24,702 nucleotides of DNA from a virus (Duplodnaviria > Heunggongvirae > Uroviricota > Caudoviricetes): the IMG/VR virus record IMGVR_UViG_2713897075_000003, positions 1-24,702 of that record. One strand, 5' to 3'. Position 1 is the first letter of the stretch; every line of letters begins with the position of its first letter. Below, one piece after another: positions 4,227-23,991 of this stretch. A program made the translations under genes and the position numbers. Under the pieces are notes generated by a model. The model was not told the origin of the DNA, searched no databases, and was given only the letters and a program-made list of their open reading frames with translations.

Positions 4227-4810
4227 TGGTTGCCTCCTTTGCGAAGCTGTTCAGCAATACTTACGCATATCTCTGCGCCTCTAATCAGCCCCGGAACGTT
4301 CTTGTTTGGCCCAACTTCACCATCAACAAAATCAATCATCGCGTTACGAGCCATATCCACCCCCTGCGCACGTACTTCAGCCAGGAGAGCGTCGGTAGCT
4401 GGGGTTTCCGTGAAGTTGTCCTCCCAACCGTAGTACTCCTGACGACAGAAGTTATTAAATTCCTTCTCCGACTGTTTAAGCGCCGCATTCTCCACTGCCA
4501 GCGCCGCGCACTTGGCCTCAAGAGCGGCAACCACTTCCTGATGGTCTTTGTACTTAACGTATGAGCCGGAGATGTCATCACCTTCGGTGTTTAGCCATGC
4601 GTCATTGCAATTCACTGCGTAGGTTCTGATGCTGATGCTCTCCCGCCCCTGACAGACGCCAGGCCAGTCAATAAAGTATCCGCAATGCCTACCCTCAGAC
4701 GTGCGCGCAGGATAAATGCCGTTATGACCCGGCAAAATATATGCTACCCATTCATCTTGCGTTGCCTGTTCCGCCGCCTCGCGCAGTTCTTGATAGTTAA
4801 TTTTGCTCAC
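4223..4810 (-). CDS. Ea22-like family protein (195 aa)
   Basis: GTG start; N-terminus MSKINYQELREAAEQ; C-terminal ...AEQLRKGGNQ shared with the paralog at 7778..8488. Confidence 0.55.
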   Translation of the reverse strand: MSKINYQELREAAEQATQDEWVAYILPGHNGIYPARTSEGRHCGYFIDWPGVCQGRESISIRTYAVNCNDAWLNTEGDDISGSYVKYKDHQEVVAALEAKCAALAVENAALKQSEKEFNNFCRQEYYGWEDNFTETPATDALLAEVRAQGVDMARNAMIDFVDGEVGPNKNVPGLIRGAEICVSIAEQLRKGGNQ

Positions 4811-5502: not shown

Positions 5503-6498
5503 TCAGTTATTGAAAGTGATCACTCCGCGCTCGATGGCGAAGTCAAAAAGCTGGTTAGCGGCTACGTAAAGGCGTATGCCATGTGCTTTTTCCCATGCCC
5601 GGACATCGTTTTCTGCGCTTCTGGCGCATTCATCGCAAAGAGGAACAGCCCAGCGGTCGTGTTCGTTTAACGAGCGAGCGCGGTACATGAATGGGTGGTT
5701 AACTTTGCCACCGCATCCGATGCACGGACGAGAAACTACAAACCGGAGATAAGCCGGGCTTTTACCGAGGACCGCTTTTGGTCGGCGCATATAAAGCAGG
5801 CCGGAATCCTCATCTACAGACAGGTTGACGATCTGCTCTGCGGTTATGTCCACCAGCTCGCGGGTACTGTGCTCCCAGGTGATATCTGATTCTTTCAGCG
5901 TACCGGTAGGGATTTCAGTTTTTGGCTGACAAAATGCAATGCGACCGGCTTCATCTGGCAGCTCATCTTTCAGATTCCGGCGAATGGCCCAAAAAGTGAG
6001 TTCAACCATGCTCAGATCGCGTTCTGGCGGTAGTTTTAACTCGCTCGCAGCCCAGTTCATAACCCAGTTGGCACGATTCAGGGATAACTGGTCGTCCAGC
6101 TTGCTGTACCCCTTCATCATGTATTCCGCATCATGCTTCCAGCACAGGCGAACGGCAGAGCCGTTATAGAAATGAGTGGTTAGCTGGTGGCTGCAATCGC
6201 GCTTATCGTGCGCCTGGCAATCGTGGATATTGGAACTTACCCAATGAACAAGCGAATCTTCACCGCCCAACGCGTTAAATACGCGCTCGCTTTGAAAAAA
6301 CGGTTTCAGAGACTGGTTGGCAACCAGCGAATAATTCAGATCCACTACGCCATCTGGCGTGTTTTCAGCCTGTTCACGCGGAAGTGGGGAGATAATGAAA
6401 CGGCGACCTACGCCAATGTAGTTACTGGTGGGCTTGTCTACCGGAAAGACAGCCACACCAGCTCCGTTTACGAAATGAGGTGTGATTATTGCACTCAT
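5503..6498 (-). CDS. DUF968-like phage protein (331 aa) with C-terminal Cys/His cluster
   Basis: ORF track. C-terminal CIGCGGKVNHPFMYRARSLNEHDRWAVPLCDEC resembles the Cys/His core of the Ref-like protein at 10710..11288. Confidence 0.55.
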   Translation of the reverse strand: MSAIITPHFVNGAGVAVFPVDKPTSNYIGVGRRFIISPLPREQAENTPDGVVDLNYSLVANQSLKPFFQSERVFNALGGEDSLVHWVSSNIHDCQAHDKRDCSHQLTTHFYNGSAVRLCWKHDAEYMMKGYSKLDDQLSLNRANWVMNWAASELKLPPERDLSMVELTFWAIRRNLKDELPDEAGRIAFCQPKTEIPTGTLKESDITWEHSTRELVDITAEQIVNLSVDEDSGLLYMRRPKAVLGKSPAYLRFVVSRPCIGCGGKVNHPFMYRARSLNEHDRWAVPLCDECARSAENDVRAWEKAHGIRLYVAANQLFDFAIERGVITFNN

Positions 6499-6538
6499 AA
6501 TGCATACCGACTCTGTTTTGTTCCGAGCGGTAAAATAA

Positions 6539-6571
6539 TATGTTAGAAAATTAAAATCAACAATCTAACAC
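6539..6571. promoter_or_regulatory. Operator-like inverted repeat TGTTAGA-N16-TCTAACA (site 1), probable internal promoter region
   Basis: aTGTTAGAaaattaaaatcaacaaTCTAACAc in the 104-bp gap between the phosphatase and DUF968-like genes. Same architecture as sites at 10631-10660 and 21481-21510. Coordinates +/-1 because of the 6481 discrepancy. Confidence 0.5.
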
Positions 6572-6602
6572 AGTTTTGAGCGCGTAAACGATGTAACCCG
6601 GC

Positions 6603-8811: not shown

Positions 8812-9509
8812 CTTTCCCCTTCAAAGTTCGGGCGCAGGCAGGATTGTCCTTTACGAAGCAGGGCTGCGAACCTGTCGGCCGCATCCGCGCAAGCAGAAGC
8901 AACGGAATCAAAAAATGGATCATCTCCGGTATCGCGCATCGTCAAAGCGAATGCCTCCAATCCCTGAGCCTGTATTTCTACAAGATAAGCCTCAGATATA
9001 GTGCTTTTCGCTTCACCTAACTCGTTATGAGCTATGTTCGCTACGCATGCGATGTCTATATCTGGATGATTAATTGGGAGATGGCTAAGAATTGCCTCAA
9101 GTGCTGCTTTTTTGTTTTGGCATTCCGCCACCAGCGCCCCGCTATTGCTTTCCAGCTCTGCAATACACTTTTTAGCGGCCTCCAGCTCAACACGCAGCTT
9201 CTCAAGCGTTAGGGCCATCTCCACGTTCTCGTCCAGCAGTTCAATCACATCAGGATCGCTACCATCAACTACTGATATGCGCGAATTTTTGTAATGCTCG
9301 TCAGCATAAGTTCGTCCAGTTTTGAAGCATCCGTCATCCTCCATGCCGGAACAGGCATAAACAACATGCGATCCAGATATGCGCTGCATTGACATTTCCT
9401 CGCCACAAACAGGGCATTTAGGCGCTGGTTTCGGTGAATAACGTTCACGTAACGGATAATAAATCTCGATCTCCGCCAGTTGCTCTGGCGTTAAACCTTC
9501 AGACTTCAT
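8808..9509 (-). CDS. Ea22-like family protein with N-terminal zinc-ribbon (233 aa)
   Basis: ORF track; CPVCGEEM...YACSG...DGC cysteine cluster plus coiled coil [23 protein letters not shown] shared with the other Ea22-like paralogs. Confidence 0.5.
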
Positions 9510-9816
9510 GCACTCTCCTTTCGAAATAAACGTACTGATTAATCATGCCCAGGGGCATTTCGAGTTTTTCCGCGATCTCACGGCGGGGAACGCCGCATTG
9601 ATGAAGTTGCCGCGCCAGCTCTATATCGCTCTGCCGATATTTGGCTGACTGGTGAAAGTCACCTTTCAGAATCATTCTGATCCCCAGTTCCCGCGCTTTA
9701 GTCCTGACAGCATCTCCGGTACGCCCGATCAGCCTCCCTATACTCTCGACTGTCATAGTTCCGGCACACTGGCGGAGTATCATGATTTCTGCCCTTCTCC
9801 ATCCCCGCCATCTCAC
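9499..9816 (-). CDS. Putative HTH DNA-binding protein (105 aa)
   Basis: ORF track; start overlaps the upstream stop (ATGA); helix-turn-helix-like segments ESIGRLIGRTGDAVRTKARELGI and VPRREIAEKLEMPLGMINQYV. Confidence 0.45.
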   Translation of the reverse strand: MRWRGWRRAEIMILRQCAGTMTVESIGRLIGRTGDAVRTKARELGIRMILKGDFHQSAKYRQSDIELARQLHQCGVPRREIAEKLEMPLGMINQYVYFERRVHEV

Positions 9817-10436
9817 GCTGACATCCTCTTAGACATAAACTCAACAAAACGAACTGCATCTTCAGAAACAACGCCGCATGACTTCAGATAATTCATTGCG
9901 TCATTAGGTAGCGGATTAGTTGGTTCGGCATTTGCCAGGGATTGAGATAAACGCGTGATTAATTTGACCATTCTCCGCTGCCGGAGGTTGTATCCTTCAG
10001 CTAAAGACAGGTAACTGGAAAGGGTATTGCTTAAGCGGGCGCGAAGCTGATCCGTGCCGTGACATTCAATAGCAACATCACGTAACGCATCGACCAGTTC
10101 ACGGTAAAGATGCGCTGCCATTCTGCAATCTGTGTCAGATGGTGCTTCATAAATTACCGTCAACCCCAGTTTTTCAGCCAGAGCGTGTTCTGCACGTGCT
10201 CCTGCGGACACATCCCATCCCTTAAGCAGATAGATCGCATCAGCAGAACGCACCATTGCCAGGCAAATATCCATGTATTCACTCTGACAAAGGCCACCAG
10301 GTAACACAGCTGGATTCAGAACGATATGCCCTTCAGCCATCAGCTCGCTCGCTTTCGCATCAAACGCCGCACGGTTGTAATCTGGATAACCAGTCATCGG
10401 CCCCGCGATGTAAATTTTCAAAACACGTTTCACCAT
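9813..10436 (-). CDS. DUF4406 / nucleoside 2-deoxyribosyltransferase-like protein (207 aa)
   Basis: Internal ATG at 10436 of track ORF 9813..10463, coupled to the stop of the upstream small ORF. KIYIAGPMTGYPDYNRAAFDAKASELMAEGHIVLNPA...ADAIYLLKGWDVSAGARAEHALAEKLGL fits the DUF4406 pattern. Confidence 0.55.
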   Translation of the reverse strand: MVKRVLKIYIAGPMTGYPDYNRAAFDAKASELMAEGHIVLNPAVLPGGLCQSEYMDICLAMVRSADAIYLLKGWDVSAGARAEHALAEKLGLTVIYEAPSDTDCRMAAHLYRELVDALRDVAIECHGTDQLRARLSNTLSSYLSLAEGYNLRQRRMVKLITRLSQSLANAEPTNPLPNDAMNYLKSCGVVSEDAVRFVEFMSKRMSA

Positions 10437-10591
10437 CAAAATTTCCCCAGCATCGTGACGCAAAACATCAGCACGGCAAAAAGCTCAATACCAAGTTCAA
10501 GTAGCGCCAACGCCCCGAAAAACAGCACATAGAACAGACCGATCTCATTCACAGATGGCTGGTGGATCGCACTTAAAGCTATAAGCATCAT
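10436..10591 (-). CDS. Small hydrophobic membrane peptide (51 aa), first gene of the leftward operon
   Basis: Hand translation MMLIALSAIHQPSVNEIGLFYVLFFGALALLELGIELFAVLMFCVTMLGKF; GGAGGA directly upstream but with short spacing; stop shares a base with the downstream ATG; below the track length cutoff. Confidence 0.35.
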   Translation of the reverse strand: MMLIALSAIHQPSVNEIGLFYVLFFGALALLELGIELFAVLMFCVTMLGKF

Positions 10592-10616
10592 GTCCTCCAA
10601 ACAGTTATCAGCGAAG

Positions 10617-10693
10617 ATATTAATGTTTTATGTTAGAAAATCAATTTTGATTATCTAACGATATTGATCAATCATAAAAAAAATCGCTGATAA
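10617..10693. promoter_or_regulatory. Divergent promoter region with operator TGTTAGA-N16-TCTAACg (site 2, 10631-10660)
   Basis: Leftward promoter (minus-strand reading): -35 TTGATT (10639-10644), 16-nt spacer, -10 TAATAT (10617-10622), with the operator covering the -35 and spacer. Rightward promoter: -35 TTGATC (10664-10669), 18-nt spacer, -10 TGATAA (10688-10693), then RBS AAGAGG and ATG 10710. Confidence 0.6.
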
Positions 10694-10709
10694 GTAAGAG
10701 GCAGCCATC

Positions 10710-11288
10710 ATGCAGAAACAGAGTTATTGGGAGAAACAGAGACAAAAAGCCATGCAAAAATTGGCTGACCCAGCCTGGCGAGAGGAACAAAGGGCAAAGC
10801 GCCTTCAACAAGCTTTACGCCAGCAGCAGCGAGCGAAAGAAAAAGCCTCATCGCCTGAATATCGGCAAAAGAAAATTGAAAAAGCAAAGCAATATGAACA
10901 GCGGAGAAAAGAGAAGGCTGTATCAGCTCCGTCCAAAAAAACACGCACGTCACGCGGCCTGAAAGGAAGATCACTCACAGCCGATGAACGCCGGATACAG
11001 ACCGCTATCGGTACTCTCCCCTGCATTGCCTGCCATATTCACGGGCAACATAGCCCAGTGGTATCCCTGCACCATATCTTCGGGAGAACGGCAGAGAACG
11101 CGCATAAATATGTTCTCCCTTTGTGTAAATGGCACCACCAGTACGCAGCGCCAGCCGAGGTCCGAGAACAATATCCCTGGCTGGTCCCTGTTCATGCTGA
11201 CGGAAAAATAGGCGGAAAAGCAGATTTCATGCGGCACAATGCCGATGAAATGGCGTTGTATCAGATGGCGATTGAATTGATAAATTAG
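10710..11288 (+). CDS. Ref-like (P1 recombination enhancement function-type) HNH-like nuclease (192 aa)
   Basis: About 95-aa highly basic, low-complexity N-terminus followed by a compact Cys/His core (LPCIACHIHGQHSPVVSLHHIF...LPLCKWHHQ). Architecture matches what I recall of P1 Ref / DUF968; no alignment was run. Confidence 0.55.
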   Translation: MQKQSYWEKQRQKAMQKLADPAWREEQRAKRLQQALRQQQRAKEKASSPEYRQKKIEKAKQYEQRRKEKAVSAPSKKTRTSRGLKGRSLTADERRIQTAIGTLPCIACHIHGQHSPVVSLHHIFGRTAENAHKYVLPLCKWHHQYAAPAEVREQYPWLVPVHADGKIGGKADFMRHNADEMALYQMAIELIN

Positions 11289-11619
11289 TTTTCTAACATT
11301 TTAAGTTGAATTGAAAAATGCTCCGATGTACATTCACTACCGATTGGCACACCGGTCAACTTTTTGAGACAAACTGTTTAGTTTTTCGTATGATTGCCGC
11401 CGCCATACCAATGGCGGTGCAATATAGGTGGCTGAAAAGCCCCCGTTGACTCACGGTGTTCCAGCCTTTATTGCGCCGCCACCAGACCGTGGAACAGTCG
11501 ATGGCGGCTCCGAAAGCAAGGAGTCACTACACTATGAACAGCTACTGTCTTTTCCCATCACTCGTTGTCCGCCACTCACGCGATAATCTGCATTCTTTAC
11601 TCGCGCTGGGGGTGTCAAA

Positions 11620-11787
11620 ATGACCGTTCGCTACCTCAACTTTCAAATCCAGAACATCACTGGCGGTTGCTATGACTGGTTTGTCACTCTCGGAAAAGAA
11701 GTGATCACCGGGAAGCTGGATGAAGTGAAAGCTAAAGCAATGGCCTACGCCTGCAAGCAAGCCAGGAAGAAATCCGCCAAAGCATAA
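11620..11787 (+). CDS. Possible small basic protein (55 aa) preceded by a coupled 29-codon upstream ORF (11534..11623)
   Basis: Hand translation MTVRYLNFQIQNITGGCYDWFVTLGKEVITGKLDEVKAKAMAYACKQARKKSAKA. Upstream ORF has RBS AAGGAG and its TGA overlaps this ATG. Both are below the track cutoff and speculative. Confidence 0.2.
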   Translation: MTVRYLNFQIQNITGGCYDWFVTLGKEVITGKLDEVKAKAMAYACKQARKKSAKA

Positions 11788-11833
11788 AATACTGACTGTT
11801 GCGCCCTGGCATTATCGTGGGGTATATTTCTAC

Positions 11834-11914
11834 GGCACCTTAGAAAAACGGGTGCCGGGATTGGAACCCCGGATAATGTCAAAGGCGACACAGACGCCGA
11901 AAGCGTCTTTTTTT
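11834..11914 (+). ncRNA. Candidate structured small RNA / 3' UTR element ending in an intrinsic terminator; possible c4-like antisense regulator of the downstream icd-like/ant operon
   Basis: Hairpins GGCACC(11 nt)GGTGCC and CCGGG-ATTGGAAC-CCCGG followed by the terminator hairpin. The loop ATTGGAAC is complementary to GGTTCC (11997-12002) and GTTCCAAC (12017-12024) in the leader of the downstream operon. No expression data. Confidence 0.25.
11893..11914 (+). terminator. Rho-independent terminator (GACGC-cgaaa-GCGTC followed by T7)
   Basis: 5-bp GC-rich stem, 5-nt loop, seven consecutive T residues. Confidence 0.6.
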
Positions 11915-12099
11915 GTGTCATGCCATCGCACAGCCATACGTAGCGTTTAGCTCAGAGATCAATGGTAGTGCTGGCTGGGCTGCCGAAAGGCAGGCCGGTT
12001 CCCTTTGACGCCGGTAGTTCCAACCCAGTCAGTGCTACCGCCATTGAGATTGGAACCTCACGCGGTAGCTCCTTAACTTAGTCAAAGGAGGCTGCCAAT

Positions 12100-12315
12100 A
12101 TGGCTACTATCCCTACCCCAACTCATTCTGAATTTATCTGGCGTTTCTATTCCTGCCAAAAACACCTGTATATCTGCGTCATGGCTGCTACCGAAGCAGA
12201 GGCGCGCTCATACCTTCCCAAAGAACCCTGCATTTTTGCTGCTCGCTTCACTCTTGATGCGATGGAGATCCTCAATTACTGGAATCTACCGATGAACTGC
12301 GTGGAGGTGCACTGA
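12100..12315 (+). CDS. Small ORF (71 aa) translationally coupled to the antirepressor gene; icd-like position
   Basis: Strong RBS AAGGAGG 8 nt upstream of ATG 12100; its stop overlaps the ATG of the Rha gene (ctgATGaat). Confidence 0.5.
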   Translation: MATIPTPTHSEFIWRFYSCQKHLYICVMAATEAEARSYLPKEPCIFAARFTLDAMEILNYWNLPMNCVEVH

Positions 12316-13256
12316 TGAATCTGTCCATCTCTCAAAAAGCGACAATGACCAGCATTGAGATCGCGGAACTGGTAGGAAGTCGCCAAGATAGTGTGAAGAG
12401 AACTATCGAAACACTGGCTAAAAAGAGTGTGATCCAATTTCCACAATCTGTGGAAATTGAAAATAAACAATCAGTTGGCCCTCGTCGATTTTCCAAGGCT
12501 TACATATTTGAAGGCGAACAAGGAAAACGAGACAGCATCATTGTCGTCGCGCAGCTCTCTCCGGAATTCACCGCCCGGCTGGTGGACCGCTGGCGCGAAC
12601 TGGAGAATGCCCGGGTACAGTTAAAATCAAAAGCCGAAATCCTGGCTGAAATGGCGCAAATGCATCTTGAGCATGAACGCCGGATCAACGCCGTAAATGC
12701 CCAGGTAGCCGAGGTATCAGCACAAGTATCGATGGTCGCTGAAACACTCGAGCAAATAAAGAAAGGCAATATTCCGGAAGGCTACATTGGCTACCGCCAG
12801 CTGGCGGCGAAATGTGGCCTGACTGAAGCCAAATGTCGCAACCTGGTTAACGCTTTCCGGATTCCCACCGATACGCATGAGTTTTTAACTCCAGATGGTT
12901 TGCTTGCGCGACGCTCCATTGTGGCCCTGGCCCCCTTCCGGAAAGCCTTTAAGCAGGTGATGTCGGAGGCAGAACCACGCAATAAACGCTGGTATCATCC
13001 AAAGATGGGGATGTTTCAGGCAATCCACCATCCTGTGCCTGAAAGCCCAAAGGATAATCTGTCACTACATACCGTCAGAGAGAAGATCAGGACTGGATAC
13101 GCAACAGTGTGTCGTCGTTCTTCCTGGCCTGAAGGTATATGGGTGTGGCCCGAAGGTGGATCACGAAAGCACTGGCGCACCATCCGTGACGGGAAAATCC
13201 ATGCTATTGATTTAGCTCCAGAGGATGTTATTGCTATGGACTGGATTGTTAGTTAA
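12315..13256 (+). CDS. Phage regulatory protein Rha / antirepressor (Ant-like), 313 aa
   Basis: N-terminus MTSIEIAELVGSRQDSVKRTIETLAKK...RRFSKAYIFEGEQGKRDSIIVVAQLSPEFTARLVDRWRELE is typical of Rha-family antirepressor N-domains. Confidence 0.7.
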   Translation: MNLSISQKATMTSIEIAELVGSRQDSVKRTIETLAKKSVIQFPQSVEIENKQSVGPRRFSKAYIFEGEQGKRDSIIVVAQLSPEFTARLVDRWRELENARVQLKSKAEILAEMAQMHLEHERRINAVNAQVAEVSAQVSMVAETLEQIKKGNIPEGYIGYRQLAAKCGLTEAKCRNLVNAFRIPTDTHEFLTPDGLLARRSIVALAPFRKAFKQVMSEAEPRNKRWYHPKMGMFQAIHHPVPESPKDNLSLHTVREKIRTGYATVCRRSSWPEGIWVWPEGGSRKHWRTIRDGKIHAIDLAPEDVIAMDWIVS

Positions 13257-14660: not shown

Positions 14661-14876
14661 GTAAACAAAATGAAGTTTTATGTTACAAAAACAATCAACT
14701 ACATCAACATGATTTAGGCCAAATTTCGGTCAAAAAATAAAATCCACAAAAAGTGGTTGACACTATTTTGGAAATCACAAACTGCACATAATCCATCGCG
14801 CTAACGGCTCCCGTTGAAGGTTCTTTTGACGATTAACTTTCAGCCGAAGCGCGGTAGGGAGTCATAACGCCAAAGC

Positions 14877-15717: not shown

Positions 15718-15910
15718 GTCATTCACTCCGTTTAATTTTTAATCTAATGCCAGCAAATGAAGCTGGCCCCCGCATAAAGATTAATGAAAGTCACTTGTCA
15801 CCAGTGAGGGGATTTATGAACCACATCCCCCTGAACTGGTGGCCTGTCTGTTTCTCGCATTTCACACCCTGCATACAGTTTCCACCAGGTTATGACTGAG
15901 AGGCTTTGTT

Positions 15911-17463: not shown

Positions 17464-17823
17464 TCATACACCAACCAGGCTTTCAAGAGGAATGCCAAAC
17501 TGGGAATGTAAACGACGAATCATAGGTAACGTTAAATTTCGTGTCCCATTTAGCACTTCGTAAACACGATTTGACTTACCAATCGCCGGTTCCAGATCCT
17601 TCACGGTCAGCCCTTGCTGTTCCATACGGAATTTAATGGCTTCAATAGGTGATGGTGGCTCAATTGGGTAATGCTTTTTCTCGTACTCTTCAATGAGCAG
17701 GCACATTACTTCAAAGAAATCGCCTTCCGGTGTGTTCATTTCCGGTTCGTTATCGAACATCGGTTCGACCGCACGCAGTGCGGCCTCATAATCTTGTTCT
17801 GTACGGATAGGTTTAATGTTCAT
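17464..17823 (-). CDS. higA: HigA-like antitoxin (HTH, 119 aa)
   Basis: Immediately downstream of the HigB-like gene (3-nt gap); C-terminal HTH region GLTVKDLEPAIGKSNRVYEVLNGTRNLTLPMIRRLHSQFGIPLESL resembles HigA-type antitoxins. Confidence 0.65.
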   Translation of the reverse strand: MNIKPIRTEQDYEAALRAVEPMFDNEPEMNTPEGDFFEVMCLLIEEYEKKHYPIEPPSPIEAIKFRMEQQGLTVKDLEPAIGKSNRVYEVLNGTRNLTLPMIRRLHSQFGIPLESLVGV

Positions 17824-17826
17824 GAT

Positions 17827-18129
17827 TTACTCCAGTTCTATTGTATCCGCTTCAATGGCATCGTATTCCTTATGTGTTCCAATAAACTTAACGAACATCC
17901 ATCCTCGCTGATAAGCAATTGCGACAATTAACCTGTAATCATTTCCCTTAATATTGAACACCACGCGCCTGTTTTTAAGGATGCTGGCTGTCCGGTACTG
18001 TTCTTTGATCTCAGCCGGATTTTTCCAGTCAGCCTTTGTTGCTTCATCAACCCATGCCTTTAATGGCTGTTCTGCATCGGGATTCTTCGCCCAGAAATCC
18101 CTTAGTGTTTTTACCGAAATTATTTTCAT
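17827..18129 (-). CDS. higB: HigB-like toxin, RelE/ParE superfamily (100 aa)
   Basis: Internal ATG of track ORF 17827..18186 preceded by GAAGGA. MKIISVKTLRDFWAKNPDAEQPLKAW...YRTASILKNRRVVFNIKGNDYRLIVAIAYQRGWMFVKFIGTHKEYD matches the HigB pattern (...VFN.GGN..R......IR.V.TH.EYD); toxin precedes antitoxin as in higBA. Confidence 0.7.
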   Translation of the reverse strand: MKIISVKTLRDFWAKNPDAEQPLKAWVDEATKADWKNPAEIKEQYRTASILKNRRVVFNIKGNDYRLIVAIAYQRGWMFVKFIGTHKEYDAIEADTIELE

Positions 18130-18159
18130 CACAGATTCCTTCTCGCTGAAAGTATAGTA

Positions 18160-18205
18160 GTCCCAATATGGGACAATGTAAAGCACTTTAGTCCCATGCT
18201 GGGAT
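18160..18205. promoter_or_regulatory. Two palindromic operator-like sites in the higBA promoter region (GTCCCAATATGGGAC and TCCCATGCTGGGA)
   Basis: Two TAGTCCCA...TGGGA palindromes 31 bp apart, directly upstream of higB and divergent from the 18275 operon. Confidence 0.45.
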
Positions 18206-19833: not shown

Positions 19834-20814
19834 GTGGCCCAGGAGTTACAACAATATTTTCTACAGTCAGTGCTCATTAACGATAACAAAGTGCCACGAG
19901 ACTGGATTTTTACCGCAGTATATGTAGAAAAAACCAGCCTCAAAGCCCCTTTGCTAAAACTGGAAATTCATGACGCTACCGGCACCGTAATTGATGACTG
20001 GAAAGCCAAATACGGTGCATCGCTGGTGGCTGAAATGGGCGATCCAAACGGTAATGCAGGCACTTTTAAAACAGATTTCTTTGTTACGTCTGCAATGCTG
20101 GCTGGTGATGTTGTTACCGTTATTGCTGTCAGTGAAGACGTGCGCAGGTTTAAGATCCCCTCCCCGCGCACAAATTTACATACCAACAAAACACCAGACG
20201 CTATATTCAAGGCATATTCCGGCAAGCTTAAAATTACCAGCAGCGTGCTAAAACGCGCAGTTACATATCATCTGAATGCCGGTGACAAACCGTCAAAAAT
20301 GCTCTCGCAGATAGCGCGAGACAAAGGTGCATTATGTTGGGTATGCCGTGGGGAATTTAACTTTTACACCCTGGCTGATCTGATGAAGCAAACGCCATCA
20401 TTTACCTACGAGGGGAATAACCCTAAAGCAGAATACACTTTGTCCAAAATGCGCCTACTCCAACAGGAACATGCGACAACAGCAAAGAATCAATATCGTT
20501 TTGTTGGGTATTCCATGACCGATGGCTACGTCGAATATGGCGATAGCTCACTCCCAGTGCGTTATATATCCGACTCTGATATGGAAACTCTTCGCAATAT
20601 GCAGCTGTCTCTCGTCCCCAAAATGGATATAGAAGTCGCAGGCAATCCGGATATAAAACCGGGAATGGTAATAGAGATTATCGTATACCGCTATGACCAG
20701 GAAAACCGCATTGATGAATCAATGCCCCGCAAGCTGATAGTAAAAAATGTTGCGCACTTTGAAGACCGCGTAGGCTACACAACACGAATGATATTAGGAG
20801 TGCCGAACAAATGA
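19834..20814 (+). CDS. Hypothetical protein (326 aa); position suggests baseplate-hub-like partner of the following spike gene
   Basis: GTG start 3 nt after the upstream stop, preceded by GGGGTGA; stop overlaps the next start (ATGA). Function unknown; the hub-like idea comes from gene order only. Confidence 0.45.
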   Translation: MAQELQQYFLQSVLINDNKVPRDWIFTAVYVEKTSLKAPLLKLEIHDATGTVIDDWKAKYGASLVAEMGDPNGNAGTFKTDFFVTSAMLAGDVVTVIAVSEDVRRFKIPSPRTNLHTNKTPDAIFKAYSGKLKITSSVLKRAVTYHLNAGDKPSKMLSQIARDKGALCWVCRGEFNFYTLADLMKQTPSFTYEGNNPKAEYTLSKMRLLQQEHATTAKNQYRFVGYSMTDGYVEYGDSSLPVRYISDSDMETLRNMQLSLVPKMDIEVAGNPDIKPGMVIEIIVYRYDQENRIDESMPRKLIVKNVAHFEDRVGYTTRMILGVPNK

Positions 20815-21464
20815 AGCGTAGAGCGCAAATTGTTGGAACTGTGCACCCGGCAGGGCTTATGCGTGCTCAGGTCCGTGTTTTACCAGACTGGAATGGCGTT
20901 CCTGATGACGATCTACCCTGGGCAGAATACCTGTTACCCATAGGTAACGCGTTTGTACCTACAGTAAAAGGCGACCTGGTATGGGTAGAGTTTCCTTATC
21001 TGGATGTTAATGGTCGAATTGATACCAGACGCCCAATGATAGTTGGCGCAGCTCAGGATGCGCCTGGCGGAGTACCAAACGTCGCGCCGGAGGCGTCAGG
21101 CAATGGTAGCGGCTGGACGCCACCAGAAGTAGACGGAGCGCCTCCCCGCCCGCAATTTTCGGCGACAAAAGATTTCGTGATTCACCGCAACAATGTGCTC
21201 GAAGTGCGAACGGCTGGCGGTGGATATGAAATAGCGAATACGGCAGCAGGCTCAAGGATTGGAATGAATGAATCAGGGCAGATATACATCATTGGTCCGG
21301 CTGATGTAGTAGTGAATGCGGGAGGGAGTGTTAACGTCAAATCAGCCGATAACATCAGCGTTAATGGCAAAAACATTACTGTGACAGCCGACGAAAATAT
21401 TGATTTCAAGGCTGGAGGCACCTTCCAGGCTATCGCAAGCAACTTTGATTTCAAGAAGGGATAG
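20811..21464 (+). CDS. Baseplate assembly protein V / gp5-like spike (OB-fold plus beta-helix repeats), 217 aa
   Basis: N-terminal AQVRVLPDWNGVPDDDLPWAEYLLPIG...KGDLVWVEFPYLDVNGRIDTRRPMIVGA follows the gpV/VgrG N-terminal OB-fold pattern; C-terminus has beta-helix-like repeats VVVNAGGSVNVKSADNISVNGKNITVTADENIDFKAGG. No sheath, tube, wedge or fiber genes are in the window. Confidence 0.5.
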   Translation: MKRRAQIVGTVHPAGLMRAQVRVLPDWNGVPDDDLPWAEYLLPIGNAFVPTVKGDLVWVEFPYLDVNGRIDTRRPMIVGAAQDAPGGVPNVAPEASGNGSGWTPPEVDGAPPRPQFSATKDFVIHRNNVLEVRTAGGGYEIANTAAGSRIGMNESGQIYIIGPADVVVNAGGSVNVKSADNISVNGKNITVTADENIDFKAGGTFQAIASNFDFKKG

Positions 21465-21473
21465 AAAACACAT

Positions 21474-21517
21474 CCAATTGTGTTAGATAATTGAATAGAA
21501 TTTTCTAACACAATTGG
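21474..21517. promoter_or_regulatory. Perfect 14-bp inverted repeat CCAATTGTGTTAGA-N16-TCTAACACAATTGG (operator site 3 / RNA hairpin) upstream of the rdgC-like operon
   Basis: Arms 21474-21487 and 21504-21517, spacer 16 nt; contains the same TGTTAGA/TCTAACA core as sites at 6540 and 10631; ends 6 bp before the RBS of the rdgC-like gene. Confidence 0.55.
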
Positions 21518-21523
21518 TGAAAC

Positions 21524-22429
21524 ATGAGATCAGTCGCTTTCAAAAACATCTTCATCTATCGTCTTTCACGTGAAGTTAACTGGAGTGCCGCAGAAGTATC
21601 CGATGCTCTTAGCAAATTCGTGTTTACTCCTTGCGGTTCTCAGGACACAGCTAAAGTCGGTTGGACACCTGTTCTTGGTGACAACCTCACCCATGAATAC
21701 CAGGGTTTTCTGCTAATACAGCATAAGCGAGAAGAAAAAATTCTCCCCTCGCAGGTGCTCAAGGAAGAGTTGCAGAAAAAAGTCCTGAAACTCGAAGAAG
21801 AGCAAGCCCGCAAGCTGAAGAAAACGGAAAGAGACAGTCTTAAAGATGAAGTCCTGCATTCACTTTTGCCTCGCGCGTTCACGAGAAAATCACTCGCCAA
21901 AATCCTGATCGACCGCAGCAACCATCTGGTATTCGTTGAGGCAAGCAGCGCCAAAAAGGCAGAGGACCAGCTGGCTTTATTGCGAAAGTCGCTCGGCAGC
22001 CTGCCTGTCATTCCATTCACACCACGCGAACCGCTGGAAATTACAATGACCGAGTGGTTTAAAAGCGGCTTCCCTGCCGGATTTACAGCAGGTGAAGACG
22101 CCACATTAAAGGGTCTGCTCGATAATGGTGGTGCCGTTCGCTGCAACAAAGTTGATCTACAGTCCGACGAGATTATGTCTCACATTGAGGCGGGGAAAGT
22201 AGCTACGACCGTTGCAATTAACTGGATGGACCGTGCGTCGTTCAGAGTCAACGATGATATGAGTATCAAAGCCCTGACATTCTGTGATGATCTCTATGAC
22301 CAGAACGACGATATCGACCGGGAGGATGTAGCACAACGATTTGATGCTGATTTCGTGCTCTTTACGGGCGAATTATCTGCACTGTTTAACGCGCTGGTGG
22401 AGGCCATTGGCGGTGAAGCAGAACGATAA
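21524..22429 (+). CDS. rdgC: RdgC-like recombination-associated protein (301 aa)
   Basis: [12 protein letters not shown]...[16 protein letters not shown]...[16 protein letters not shown]...[29 protein letters not shown]...[23 protein letters not shown]...[22 protein letters not shown] is collinear with chromosomal E. coli RdgC as I recall it. Confidence 0.85.
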
Positions 22430-23093
22430 TAACCGACCGCTTGTTGTGAGTCTTTGTGATTTTACGGGGGCAATGGTTGCCCCCTGGCTGGAATACGGTG
22501 TCGATGCCGCTATCGTCGATCCACAGCACTTATCGACCAGTGACGAGCGGATGCAATCAGGTGCCGTTCTGACGCGTATTAGTGCGATCATCGATAGCGA
22601 TGAAGTATACGCTTTTCTCCGTAAGAATTTGCAGCGCATCGTGTTTCTGGCCGGGTTCCCACCGTGTACTGACCTGGCTGTTTCCGGCGCGCGCTGGTTT
22701 TCGGACAAGGCTAATAAAGATCCGGTTTTCCAGTTCAAAGCAATGCAGGTTGTCTGGCAGTGTTATGACATTGCAAAGATGATCGGTTGTCCGTACATGA
22801 TTGAAAATCCGGTCAGCAAAATATCGACATTCTGGCGTAAGCCAGATCACAGCTTTCACCCTTACTTCTTCACTGCATATTGTCAGGAAGATAACTACAC
22901 CAAAAAAACATGCCTCTGGAGCGGCCAGGGCTTTGTCATGCCTGATGCCCTAATGGACGAATCATTAGGCAAGCCAGATAACAGAATCCATGCCGCGCCA
23001 CCAGGGCCTGACAGGGCTAATTTCCGAAGTGCTACTCCACATGGATTCGCAAAGGCAGTTTTCGAAGCGAATAAGGGGGTGCTCTATGAGTAA
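22413..23093 (+). CDS. Truncated C5-cytosine methyltransferase-like catalytic core (about 226 aa; motifs I, IV, VI-like; no target-recognition domain)
   Basis: Probable GTG start 22413 (GGAGG 9 nt upstream), overlapping the rdgC stop. SLCDFTGAM (motif I-like), [15 protein letters not shown] (motif IV-like PC with Cys), MIENPVSKI (ENV-like) occur in the order and spacing expected for the large domain of C5-MTases. Too short to contain a TRD or motifs IX/X. Confidence 0.5.
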
Positions 23094-23991
23094 ATCTATA
23101 GCAAGCATAGCCATAGAAAAACAGGATACGATGGCTGAAATTAGCTATATGCGCACCATTCGGACTCCGGATGAATATGAGCGTCCGATATTCAAATGGG
23201 TAGGTGGTAAATTCTCAGAATTGCCTACAGTGCTTGAGCATCTACCACACGGTAAGCGGTTAATAGAACCATTCGTTGGTGGCGGTTCCGTATTTACGAA
23301 TGCAGGATTTCGCCACAACCTGCTTAATGATATTAACGGTGACCTGATTAACTTCTATCAGACATTGCAGCGAGAAGGACATTCGCTCGTCACGCTGTCA
23401 TATAGTTTTTTCAAAAATTACAACAACGCTGACGCTTACCTCGAAGTGCGTGAGGCATTTAACAGAGGAAAATATGACCAGCTACATCATGCTGCCGCAT
23501 TTTTGTACCTTAATCGTCACTGTTTTAATGGCGTAACGCGGTACAACCAAAATGGCGAGTTCAACGTGGGGTATGGCAAATACAAAGCGCCCTACTTCCC
23601 ACATGCAGAGATGGAGGCATTTTTGGCTGATGACGTACTCAAAAACACTTCCTTTGTATCAGGAGACTTTGCTAGCGTCATCGAGGCGGCTGGTGAAGAC
23701 GATGTGATTTTTTGTGATCCGCCGTATGAACCGCTTCCGGATACAGAGGGATTTACCAGCTATTCAGGAAATAGCTTCCGTTTCGATGAACAAAAACGGC
23801 TTGTATCACTGTTGGTGGATGCCCACCAGCGCGGCGCTAAGGTAGTGATAACAAATAGTGGTGCTCCAAACATCCGTGAGCTATATGAAGGAAACGGGTT
23901 TAAAGTACATCATATGGCAGCCAGACGGTCGGTTTCCTGCAAGGCGTCAACACGTGTAGTTGCTAACGATATAATTGCAATAATGAAGTAA
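23086..23991 (+). CDS. dam: Dam-family DNA N6-adenine methyltransferase (301 aa)
   Basis: ATG 23086 with RBS AAGGGGG, overlapping the upstream stop by 8 nt. PIFKWVGGK...IEPFVGGGSVF...FLYLNRHCFNGVTRYNQNGEFNV...DPPYEP match Dam / T4 Dam motifs including DPPY. Confidence 0.85.
   Translation: MSKSIASIAIEKQDTMAEISYMRTIRTPDEYERPIFKWVGGKFSELPTVLEHLPHGKRLIEPFVGGGSVFTNAGFRHNLLNDINGDLINFYQTLQREGHSLVTLSYSFFKNYNNADAYLEVREAFNRGKYDQLHHAAAFLYLNRHCFNGVTRYNQNGEFNVGYGKYKAPYFPHAEMEAFLADDVLKNTSFVSGDFASVIEAAGEDDVIFCDPPYEPLPDTEGFTSYSGNSFRFDEQKRLVSLLVDAHQRGAKVVITNSGAPNIRELYEGNGFKVHHMAARRSVSCKASTRVVANDIIAIMK

Follow-up and report, generated by a model that had tools for sequence, protein, structure and literature searches.

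Dispersed asymmetric TCTAA-core sites in a D6-like phage-plasmid are probable operators of a D6-type C1 repressor

Main finding

We describe a family of dispersed, operator-like DNA sites in a stretch of 24,702 nucleotides from a virus of the Caudoviricetes (IMG/VR record IMGVR_UViG_2713897075_000003, positions 1 to 24,702; the whole stretch is called the window below) and in its close relative, Escherichia phage D6, a P1-like plasmid prophage. On comparative sequence evidence, the sites are very probably operators of the D6-type C1 protein, the master prophage repressor and a distant relative of the C1 of phage P1. The recognized unit appears to be asymmetric, to span about 17-20 bp and to contain a TCTAA core that does not vary; it occurs alone or as inverted pairs. 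An earlier note, made from the letters of the window without database searches, had described the pairs as a recurring TGTTAGA-N16-TCTAACA inverted repeat and had proposed a dimeric repressor of accessory operons.

Over 78% of its length the window aligns with D6 at 95% identity, in reverse orientation (D6 60924-85805), and many non-mobilizable plasmids of 86-95 kb from E. coli and Salmonella are about equally close to it. By the D6 annotation, one site of the window stands at the ref stop and the others in three gaps: that between the ppp-like and pdcB-DUF968-like genes, that separating ref from a leftward accessory operon, and that between gene 5 and hrdC.

Results

Occurrence of the motif in the window

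Exact TGTTAGA-N16-TCTAACA occurs at 6541-6570 and 21481-21510, with 0 matches in 100 dinucleotide-preserving shuffles. When up to two mismatches are allowed, 10631-10660 joins them with a single mismatch, giving three sites against 0.07 expected. The three-site motif of the earlier note is real and nonrandom at all three positions, with the correction that the right arm of 10631-10660 reads TCTAACG and not TCTAACA. The spacers of all three pairs are 16 bp long and AT-rich, as the note had said, and the perfect 14-bp inverted repeat that it had placed near the rdgC-like operon is present at 21474-21487 (CCAATTGTGTTAGA) and 21504-21517 (TCTAACACAATTGG). Five of the six TGTTAGA/TCTAACA heptamers in the window fall within the three pairs; the sixth is a lone TCTAACA at 11292-11298, around which TTCTAACAT covers 11291-11299. 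The repetition of the motif is real and statistically robust.

Scored with a 26-column weight matrix, seven arms in the window reach 14-31 bits, and 100 Markov shuffles of the window gave zero matches of at least 18 bits. The extended consensus (A/G)TGTTAGA(A/T)AAT given in the earlier note agrees with this matrix. All arms lie in gaps between open reading frames (ORFs), the sole overlap being that of the single site with the final 8 bases of ref. The putative operator arms are as follows.

6533..6558, - strand: strong arm GATTTTAATTTTCTAACATATTATTT, 31.0 bits (30.0 with an independently trained matrix)
6553..6578, + strand: weak partner arm, core AATCTAACACAG, 14.1 bits, core 21 bp from that of the strong arm
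10623..10648, - strand: strong arm AAAATTGATTTTCTAACATAAAACAT, 29.4 bits (26.9 with the independent matrix)
10643..10668, + strand: partner arm, core TCTAACG, 20.1 bits, 21 bp from the strong arm
11281..11306, + strand: single operator TAAATTAGTTTTCTAACATTTTAAGT, 28.2 bits, at the ref stop codon, no partner arm
21473..21498, - strand: left arm upstream of hrdC AATTATCTAACACAATTGG, 17.9 bits
21493..21518, + strand: right arm upstream of hrdC AATTTTCTAACACAATTGG, 25.1 bits

The first two arms jointly make the inverted repeat 6541-6570; the strong one lies between the ppp-like and pdcB/DUF968-like genes and has homologous sites in D6, in L007 (a plasmid 95.8% identical to the window) and in the plasmid pHX138.33gt_1 (pHX138). 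The next two, between the leftward operon and ref, constitute the 10631-10660 site. A further operator-like sequence, TTGATTGTTTTTGTAACATAAAACTT at 14673-14698 (- strand), lies upstream of a simB-like gene and scores 14 bits in the window, 17.7 bits in L007 and 11 in D6. It was rejected as an operator; its core reads TGTAAC, and the otherwise invariant C of TCTAA is missing.

Distribution in the D6 genome

The genome-wide weight-matrix search suggested in the earlier note was run on the full 91-kb genome of D6, and strong matches were confined to intergenic gaps: all 15 matches of about 18 bits or more are intergenic (15/15), in 12 gaps. The D6 genome is 89.8% annotated, and random placement of the sites in gaps has a probability of about 0.1 to the power 12. 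Markov shuffles gave 0.1 such matches per D6-size genome. The first matrix had been trained on sites that it later scored, and it was retrained on 7 D6 sites from regions with no homology to the window. The retrained matrix still ranks the window arms at the top (30.0, 26.9, 25.8 and 20.2 bits), the weaker partners scoring 10-13 bits. The D6 sites are located as follows.

191-216: directly upstream of c1
4624-4649: upstream of lpa, outside the training set
22459-22484: upstream of repL, outside the training set
pmgS: upstream and downstream of the gene
Gap between repL and the icd/ant module
Upstream of orf52
Upstream of hrdC
ref: upstream, and at the stop codon
ppp-pdcB gap
After the cre-like recombinase gene

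A regulon limited to accessory operons, as the earlier note had it, does not describe this distribution, which outside the window includes the core lysis-lysogeny genes c1, lpa and repL. Two strong operators of D6, at 8909-8934 and 9065-9090, lie in an unannotated 1.2-kb gap that runs from tRNA genes to the 3' end of pmgS. The GenBank and RefSeq records of D6 carry only coding-sequence, tRNA and recombination-site features, and the operators are unannotated there. Literature searches yielded no description of D6 operators and nothing relevant for the motif strings, although an earlier description, for example in the D6 genome paper, is possible.

The motif follows the C1 lineage

The C1 of D6 has 345 amino acids and is 21% identical to P1 C1. 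Both are assigned to Pfam family PF27008 (Phage_P7_repressor_C1) by precomputed annotation, and a local Pfam scan gave no family for either. In D6, L007, pHX138 and two more distant relatives (L044 and L045), c1 is encoded beside recombinase and terminase genes, and in all five an operator stands directly upstream of c1; D6, L007, L044 and L045 also have one at lpa. A D6-type C1 is present in 149 plasmid records. In L007 the protein is 99% identical to that of D6 and its gene lies about 5-6 kb past the position of the window's left end. The window stops about 5.5 kb short of the c1 position, and we infer that its own element encodes a PF27008 C1 there. Two expectations of the earlier note are borne out in these comparisons: one operator family recurs at several promoters, as expected of one regulator for several operons, and the likely regulator gene is outside the window, with a C1 homologue about 5.5 kb past the left end in close relatives.

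Where C1 is 68%, 51% or 44% identical to that of D6, TTTCTAACA sites are kept upstream of c1 and after cre. The complete plasmid pHX138.33gt_1 (68%) has 16 matches at the expected positions. L044 (51%) and L045 (44%) have TTTTCTAACA sites upstream of c1 and lpa and after cre, and also at pmgS or DUF968. Among IMG/VR viral contigs, exact GTGTTAGA-N16-TCTAACAC was found in 32 stretches, 25 of which are D6-like elements with the match at the hrdC or ref position; the remaining 7 are unrelated, have GC-rich spacers and lack matrix support.

A more distant C1, 29% identical to that of D6, is encoded by the Pantoea agglomerans plasmid pPA-MXU-90 (L046), which has a P1/D6-like plasmid prophage backbone. 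To our knowledge, this C1 lineage has not been characterized. The plasmid carries neither the D6 nor the P1 motif. Instead, AAATCTAAG occurs five times in 25 kb, always in intergenic DNA (7392, 10317, 22361/22382 and 23782) and at partly the same positions as in D6: one copy follows the cre-like gene and others lie around the pmgS-like gene. The TCTAA-core motif of this plasmid is (C/T)GAAAATCTAAG. There is one inverted pair, whose cores are separated by 13 bp, a geometry like that of P1. The motif looks like a third variant of the operator. The D6 matrix, applied to the P1 DNA examined, gave nothing at 18 bits or above. Three C1 lineages are thus accompanied by three TCTAA-core variants, and of the indirect evidence for C1 as the binder, this co-variation is the strongest.

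The recognized unit is asymmetric

When 17 D6 sites are aligned in register, conservation extends far past the heptamer and has no internal symmetry; the consensus is approximately AAATT(A/G)(A/G)TTTTCTAACA(C/T)A, with A/T-rich DNA after it. The three pairs of the window recur in D6, along with a fourth, degenerate pair and several single TCTAACA copies. About seven of the strongest D6 sites (28-32 bits) are single, with no partner of at least 11 bits at 21 bp, and they occupy conserved positions: c1, pmgS, orf52, after cre and after ref. It is this conservation that suggests the single copies are functional. Since the site at 11281..11306 scores 28 bits as a single copy, it would be a complete operator; the earlier note had located this sequence correctly (11291-11299) and had taken it for a lone half-site.

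A model along the lines of the earlier note is that an obligate dimeric repressor of the helix-turn-helix (HTH) type binds a symmetric 30-bp palindrome, lone copies being weak or non-functional half-sites. The pairs themselves speak for such a model: the N16 spacing is fixed in three window pairs and five D6 pairs, and in each pair a strong arm is accompanied by a weak one, as cooperative or dimeric binding predicts. In addition, the D6-type C1 has a confidently modelled helical C-terminal region, absent from P1 C1, that could mediate self-association. We nevertheless consider an obligate dimer unlikely, for the top D6 sites include partnerless copies at conserved positions, and each unit is asymmetric, with conservation reaching about 10 bp past the heptamer on both sides. 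Orientation and spacing are constant in every one of the 18 pairs seen across 10 elements, with 21 bp from core to core each time (18/18). This fixed geometry, together with the pattern of strong and weak arms, suggests an interaction between two bound molecules.

Conservation and hairpin at the hrdC site

Among 12 distinct sequences upstream of hrdC with flanking genes as little as about 70% identical, TGTGTTAGATAATT and ATTTTCTAACACA never change, whereas 6-7 central columns and the flanking codons vary. The pattern resembles a typical protein-binding footprint.

This site alone also has an outer extension.

21474..21517, + strand: extended inverted repeat, 14 bp per arm, at the hrdC site only

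The corresponding RNA is predicted to form a stable hairpin of -22.7 kcal/mol (z = -6.7). The outer 7-10 bp beyond the arms differ in four lineages yet stay complementary, with six pairs changed on both sides. The outer repeat is also found in D6 (64113-64156) and in three other relatives (L018, L025 and L028).

A stable fold whose outer base pairs are maintained by two-sided changes is what would be expected if the inverted repeats were RNA or DNA hairpins, such as terminators, RNase III sites or messenger RNA stabilizers, rather than protein operators. For the motif as a whole we find this very improbable. The ref and pdcB pairs lack the outer extension, the single copies are unable to form a hairpin, and the arms are invariant in the way typical of protein recognition. 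At hrdC itself, the hairpin could serve to process the RNA or to insulate hrdC from the late tail operon. Alternatively, it could have arisen through template switching during replication, which corrects near-palindromes and could leave symmetric flanks that have no function. The hrdC hairpin was rejected as an intrinsic terminator: its stem is AT-rich and is followed on the + strand by GTGAAACATG, with no T-run. The terminator scan itself covered 10400-12200, elsewhere in the window.

Other candidate binders

Two proteins encoded in the window have been considered as binders of the motif, a 105-amino-acid HTH-like protein (9499-9816, - strand), named in the earlier note, and a HigA-type HTH protein (17464-17823). 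The gene for the former lies within the operon under the 10623-10668 pair; the protein is conserved in D6, L007 and L044 (40% identity) and has a weak, sub-threshold match to a sigma-70 region-4-like HTH. But pHX138.33gt_1, a complete plasmid of 76 kb, lacks a homologue (best tblastn E = 3.9) and keeps the whole network, its 16 operator matches standing at the usual positions, and we reject the 105-amino-acid candidate. Its family is scattered among Vibrio, Serratia and Stx phages. The HigA-type protein belongs to a HigB/HigA toxin-antitoxin pair, and antitoxins of this type normally regulate their own promoter only. We give a binder encoded in the window almost no credence.

The 105-amino-acid protein has two HTH-like repeats and belongs to a small family found in D6-like plasmids, Stx phages, Serratia phage Parlo and many Vibrio phages; P1 is not among the phage records that match it.

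Recognition by a host DNA-binding protein, either nucleoid-associated or integration host factor (IHF), would fit sites that are AT-rich and located at promoters, and H-NS binds the regulatory region of P1 ref (PMC4713147). It is hardly credible, however, given an invariant TCTAAC core with G/C positions, a fixed geometry and variants that track C1 type; a factor common to Escherichia, Salmonella and Pantoea does not fit lineage-specific motif variants. IHF sites were rejected on a reading by eye, in which the AATCAA-containing spacers do not fit the consensus WATCAANNNNTTR.

Candidate promoters and proposed silencing by C1

A standard promoter scan of 10400-12200, with a threshold of 9 of 12 matches, called no promoter at the sites, and a looser scan gave 8-of-12 candidates only; the promoter assignments below therefore remain provisional.

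6535..6563, - strand: candidate leftward sigma-70 promoter TTGTTG-17-TATTAT, 8/12 matches, strong arm in the spacer
10617..10644, - strand: candidate leftward promoter TTGATT-16-TAATAT, operator in the spacer
10647..10675, + strand: candidate rightward ref promoter TTGATT-17-AATCAT, right arm in the spacer
-35 at 21462-21467 and -10 at 21486-21491, + strand: candidate hrdC promoter TAGAAA-18-GATAAT

The first would serve the pdcB-like gene and the genes downstream of it. The second would serve a small ORF with its start ATG at 10592 (the longest ORF spans 10436-10600), then the genes for a DUF4406 protein and the 105-amino-acid protein, and so on to ppp. At the 10623-10668 pair, the central AATCAA-TT-TTGATT would form two back-to-back -35 boxes. 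The single site at 11281..11306 overlaps promoter-like TTGATA-19-TAAGTT or TTGAAT-16-TAACAT, which would read into an immI-like operon. At hrdC, the T-to-A deviation of the left arm creates GATAAT, the candidate -10 box, and GTTAGATAATT is invariant in the 12 diverged sequences.

The genes that would be controlled from these sites include the following.

5503-6498, - strand: pdcB-like gene
10710..11288, + strand: ref-like gene for a RecA-dependent nuclease, with operators on both flanks
11835-11913, + strand: isrK-like RNA (Rfam, 62.7 bits)
11958-12045, + strand: C4 antisense RNA (Rfam, 77.1 bits)
12100-12315, + strand: icd, downstream of the C4 RNA
12315-13256, + strand: ant, a Rha/KilA-type antirepressor gene, downstream of icd
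21524..23991, + strand: hrdC/RdgC-like gene and two DNA methyltransferase genes

Because the isrK-like and C4 RNAs stand ahead of icd and an antirepressor gene, the segment downstream of the single operator is an immI-like module. A second icd/ant module of D6 is located elsewhere, at 19986-20917. The gap containing the hrdC site is preceded by the baseplate gene 5, and the methyltransferase genes follow hrdC.

By analogy with P1 C1, it is hypothesized that each site is bound by one C1 molecule and that C1 at sites in or near the -35/-10 region blocks RNA polymerase in the lysogen. Since the sites lie in or next to the -35/-10 regions of candidate early promoters, C1 would shut off four units of the window: the leftward accessory operon and ref via the pair at 10623-10668, the pdcB-like block via the pair at 6533-6578, the immI-like isrK/c4/icd/ant operon via the single site at 11281-11306, and hrdC with the methyltransferase genes via the pair at 21473-21518. 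In the pairs, the units face away from each other with cores 21 bp, or two helical turns, apart, which would place two repressors on one face of the DNA, and the strong arm could help to fill the weak one. Once C1 is inactivated, lpa and repL would be freed from repression along with ref, hrdC-dmt, the antirepressor module and the accessory operon.

A different role for the motif, as a mark of Lpa-dependent late promoters, was considered and rejected; the motif does not stand immediately upstream of the structural or lysis blocks of D6, and the -22 boxes of P1 late promoters resemble AAGTGACTT.

Other features of the window

A box that does match the -22 box of P1 late promoters (LPmat AAGTGACTT) is the near-palindromic AAGTGACTT / AAGTCACTT at 15788-15796. 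It lies in the gap upstream of a gene-26-like baseplate gene, with TAATCT after the box on the - strand, and may be a late promoter dependent on Lpa, separate from the operator motif; -22-type boxes in the window are not above chance (8 against 5.2 expected). Between blocks of tail genes, the - strand encodes a toxin-antitoxin pair, with a HigB-type gene at 17827-18186 (PF09907, E = 5e-34) and an HTH_3 antitoxin-like gene at 17464-17823.

Discussion

Several points weigh against C1 as the binder of these sites. The assignment for D6-type sites is built on regulon logic and co-occurrence, and the c1 gene of the window's own element is outside the window. The promoter hexamers are weak (8/12), and the standard scan calls none at the sites. 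The similarity between the D6 and P1 operator profiles is marginal, with 4.9% of column-shuffled nulls scoring equally well. The fixed 21-bp pairing is unlike the bivalent operators of P1, and dimers could bind the pairs. The matrix was first trained on its own targets, a circularity that retraining addresses only in part.

A bolder proposal, with the balance leaning slightly against it, is that the C1-family repressors of P1, P7, D6 and their relatives are Tus-fold monomers that clamp an asymmetric TCTAA-core site. The operator variants, namely GCTCTAATAAA in P1, TTTTCTAACAC in D6 and the Pantoea-type GAAAATCTAAG, would then be lineage-specific re-tunings of one DNA-reading surface, to which the D6 type would have added its fixed pairing, two helical turns apart on the same face of the DNA. 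Models of C1 resemble E. coli Tus, with template-modelling scores of only about 0.3, the models being of moderate confidence (predicted local distance difference test values of 70 and 81). Searches of PDB sequences with either C1 or a C1 profile gave no matches, no sequence similarity to Tus was detectable, and literature searches for Tus together with C1 found nothing. The two proteins also differ in function: Tus arrests replication forks at Ter sites, whereas C1 represses transcription. If the proposal is true, the asymmetry of P1 operators, known for a long time, would gain a structural explanation, and a fold familiar from replication termination would be linked to phage immunity.

Plasmid prophages of the D6 kind are frequent in E. 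coli, Salmonella and Shigella, and knowledge of their operator would define the regulon silenced in the lysogen; in the window this regulon would comprise ref and hrdC-dmt, the antirepressor module and the long, mosaic accessory operon. The operator would also serve as a simple sequence marker of a repressor specificity group, probably an immunity group, which can help to predict mutually excluding phage-plasmids and is useful for annotation of this widespread family. The operator, repressor and promoters are parts that would not be expected to cross-react with the P1 system. The three TCTAA-core variants and their repressor lineages form a natural data set on specificity change in what would be a monomeric repressor.

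Comparison with known systems

The closest known system is the set of ImmC operators of P1 and P7 (Op2, Op51, Op53, Op68, Op72, Op83, Op86, Op94 and Op99). P1 is reported to have 22 dispersed, asymmetric 17-bp C1 operators with the consensus ATTGCTCTAATAAATTT (PMC8546580). C1 controls the expression of P1 ref, dmt, kilA, ssb and ban, in the case of ref, dmt and kilA on experimental evidence (PMC4713147). The curated P1 record places C1 operators at c1 (Oc1a-e), lpa, pmgR/S, uhr-hrdC-dmt (Odmt), ref (Oref), the ref stop (Omat) and ppp. The two systems have in common a PF27008 repressor and dispersed, asymmetric TCTAA-core sites of about 17 bp, both single and paired, and D6 has sites at homologues of the genes with P1 operators: c1, lpa, ref, the ref stop, hrdC-dmt, pmgR/S and the ppp region. 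We take repL and immI to correspond in the two phages as well, partly from published work. P1 ref is flanked by Oref and Omat just as the ref of the window stands between two operators, the single operator at the ref stop having the position of Omat; Oref lies between the -35 and -10 of P2ref, and the window operators likewise lie in candidate promoter spacers. The block at 21524..23991 is the counterpart of the C1-controlled uhr-hrdC-dmt operon of P1.

The differences concern specificity and geometry. The D6 operator is ATTTTCTAACACA-like, in contrast to the P1 consensus ATTGCTCTAATAAATTT, which has no match in the window or in D6 at three or fewer mismatches. Taken with the lack of D6-type matches in P1 DNA, this argues for a specificity other than P1/P7 immunity. 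The resemblance to the P1 C1 operator that the earlier note had suggested is therefore right in kind, in that there is a C1 homologue with sites at P1-operator genes, but not in sequence. D6 is heteroimmune to P1 and P7, which would fit. When D6 and P1 operators are aligned by eye, the two orientations are nearly equal (10 and 11 of 17 identities); a profile comparison favours the alignment of TCTAA on TCTAA, at the 5% level only. In the bivalent operators of P1 (Oban ab, Oc1 ab), the 17-mers overlap by 6 bp and face inward with cores 13 bp apart, whereas in the D6-type pairs the TCTAA cores point the opposite way and lie 21 bp apart (18/18). The D6-type C1 is also predicted to have an extra C-terminal helical region relative to P1 C1. 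Genes resembling coi or lxc/bof are absent from the D6 annotation, and Lxc went undetected in pYU39_89, a D6-like plasmid (PMC6799933).

Dimeric repressors of the lambda CI/Cro and LexA types likewise hold lytic promoters off, and the paired sites look like their palindromes. Unlike theirs, the D6-type unit is asymmetric and would be competent as a single copy, and the sites are spread over about 12 loci of a 91-kb genome, compared with one clustered switch region in the lambda type. The network is an ordinary kind of system, the same in kind as P1 ImmC with another specificity.

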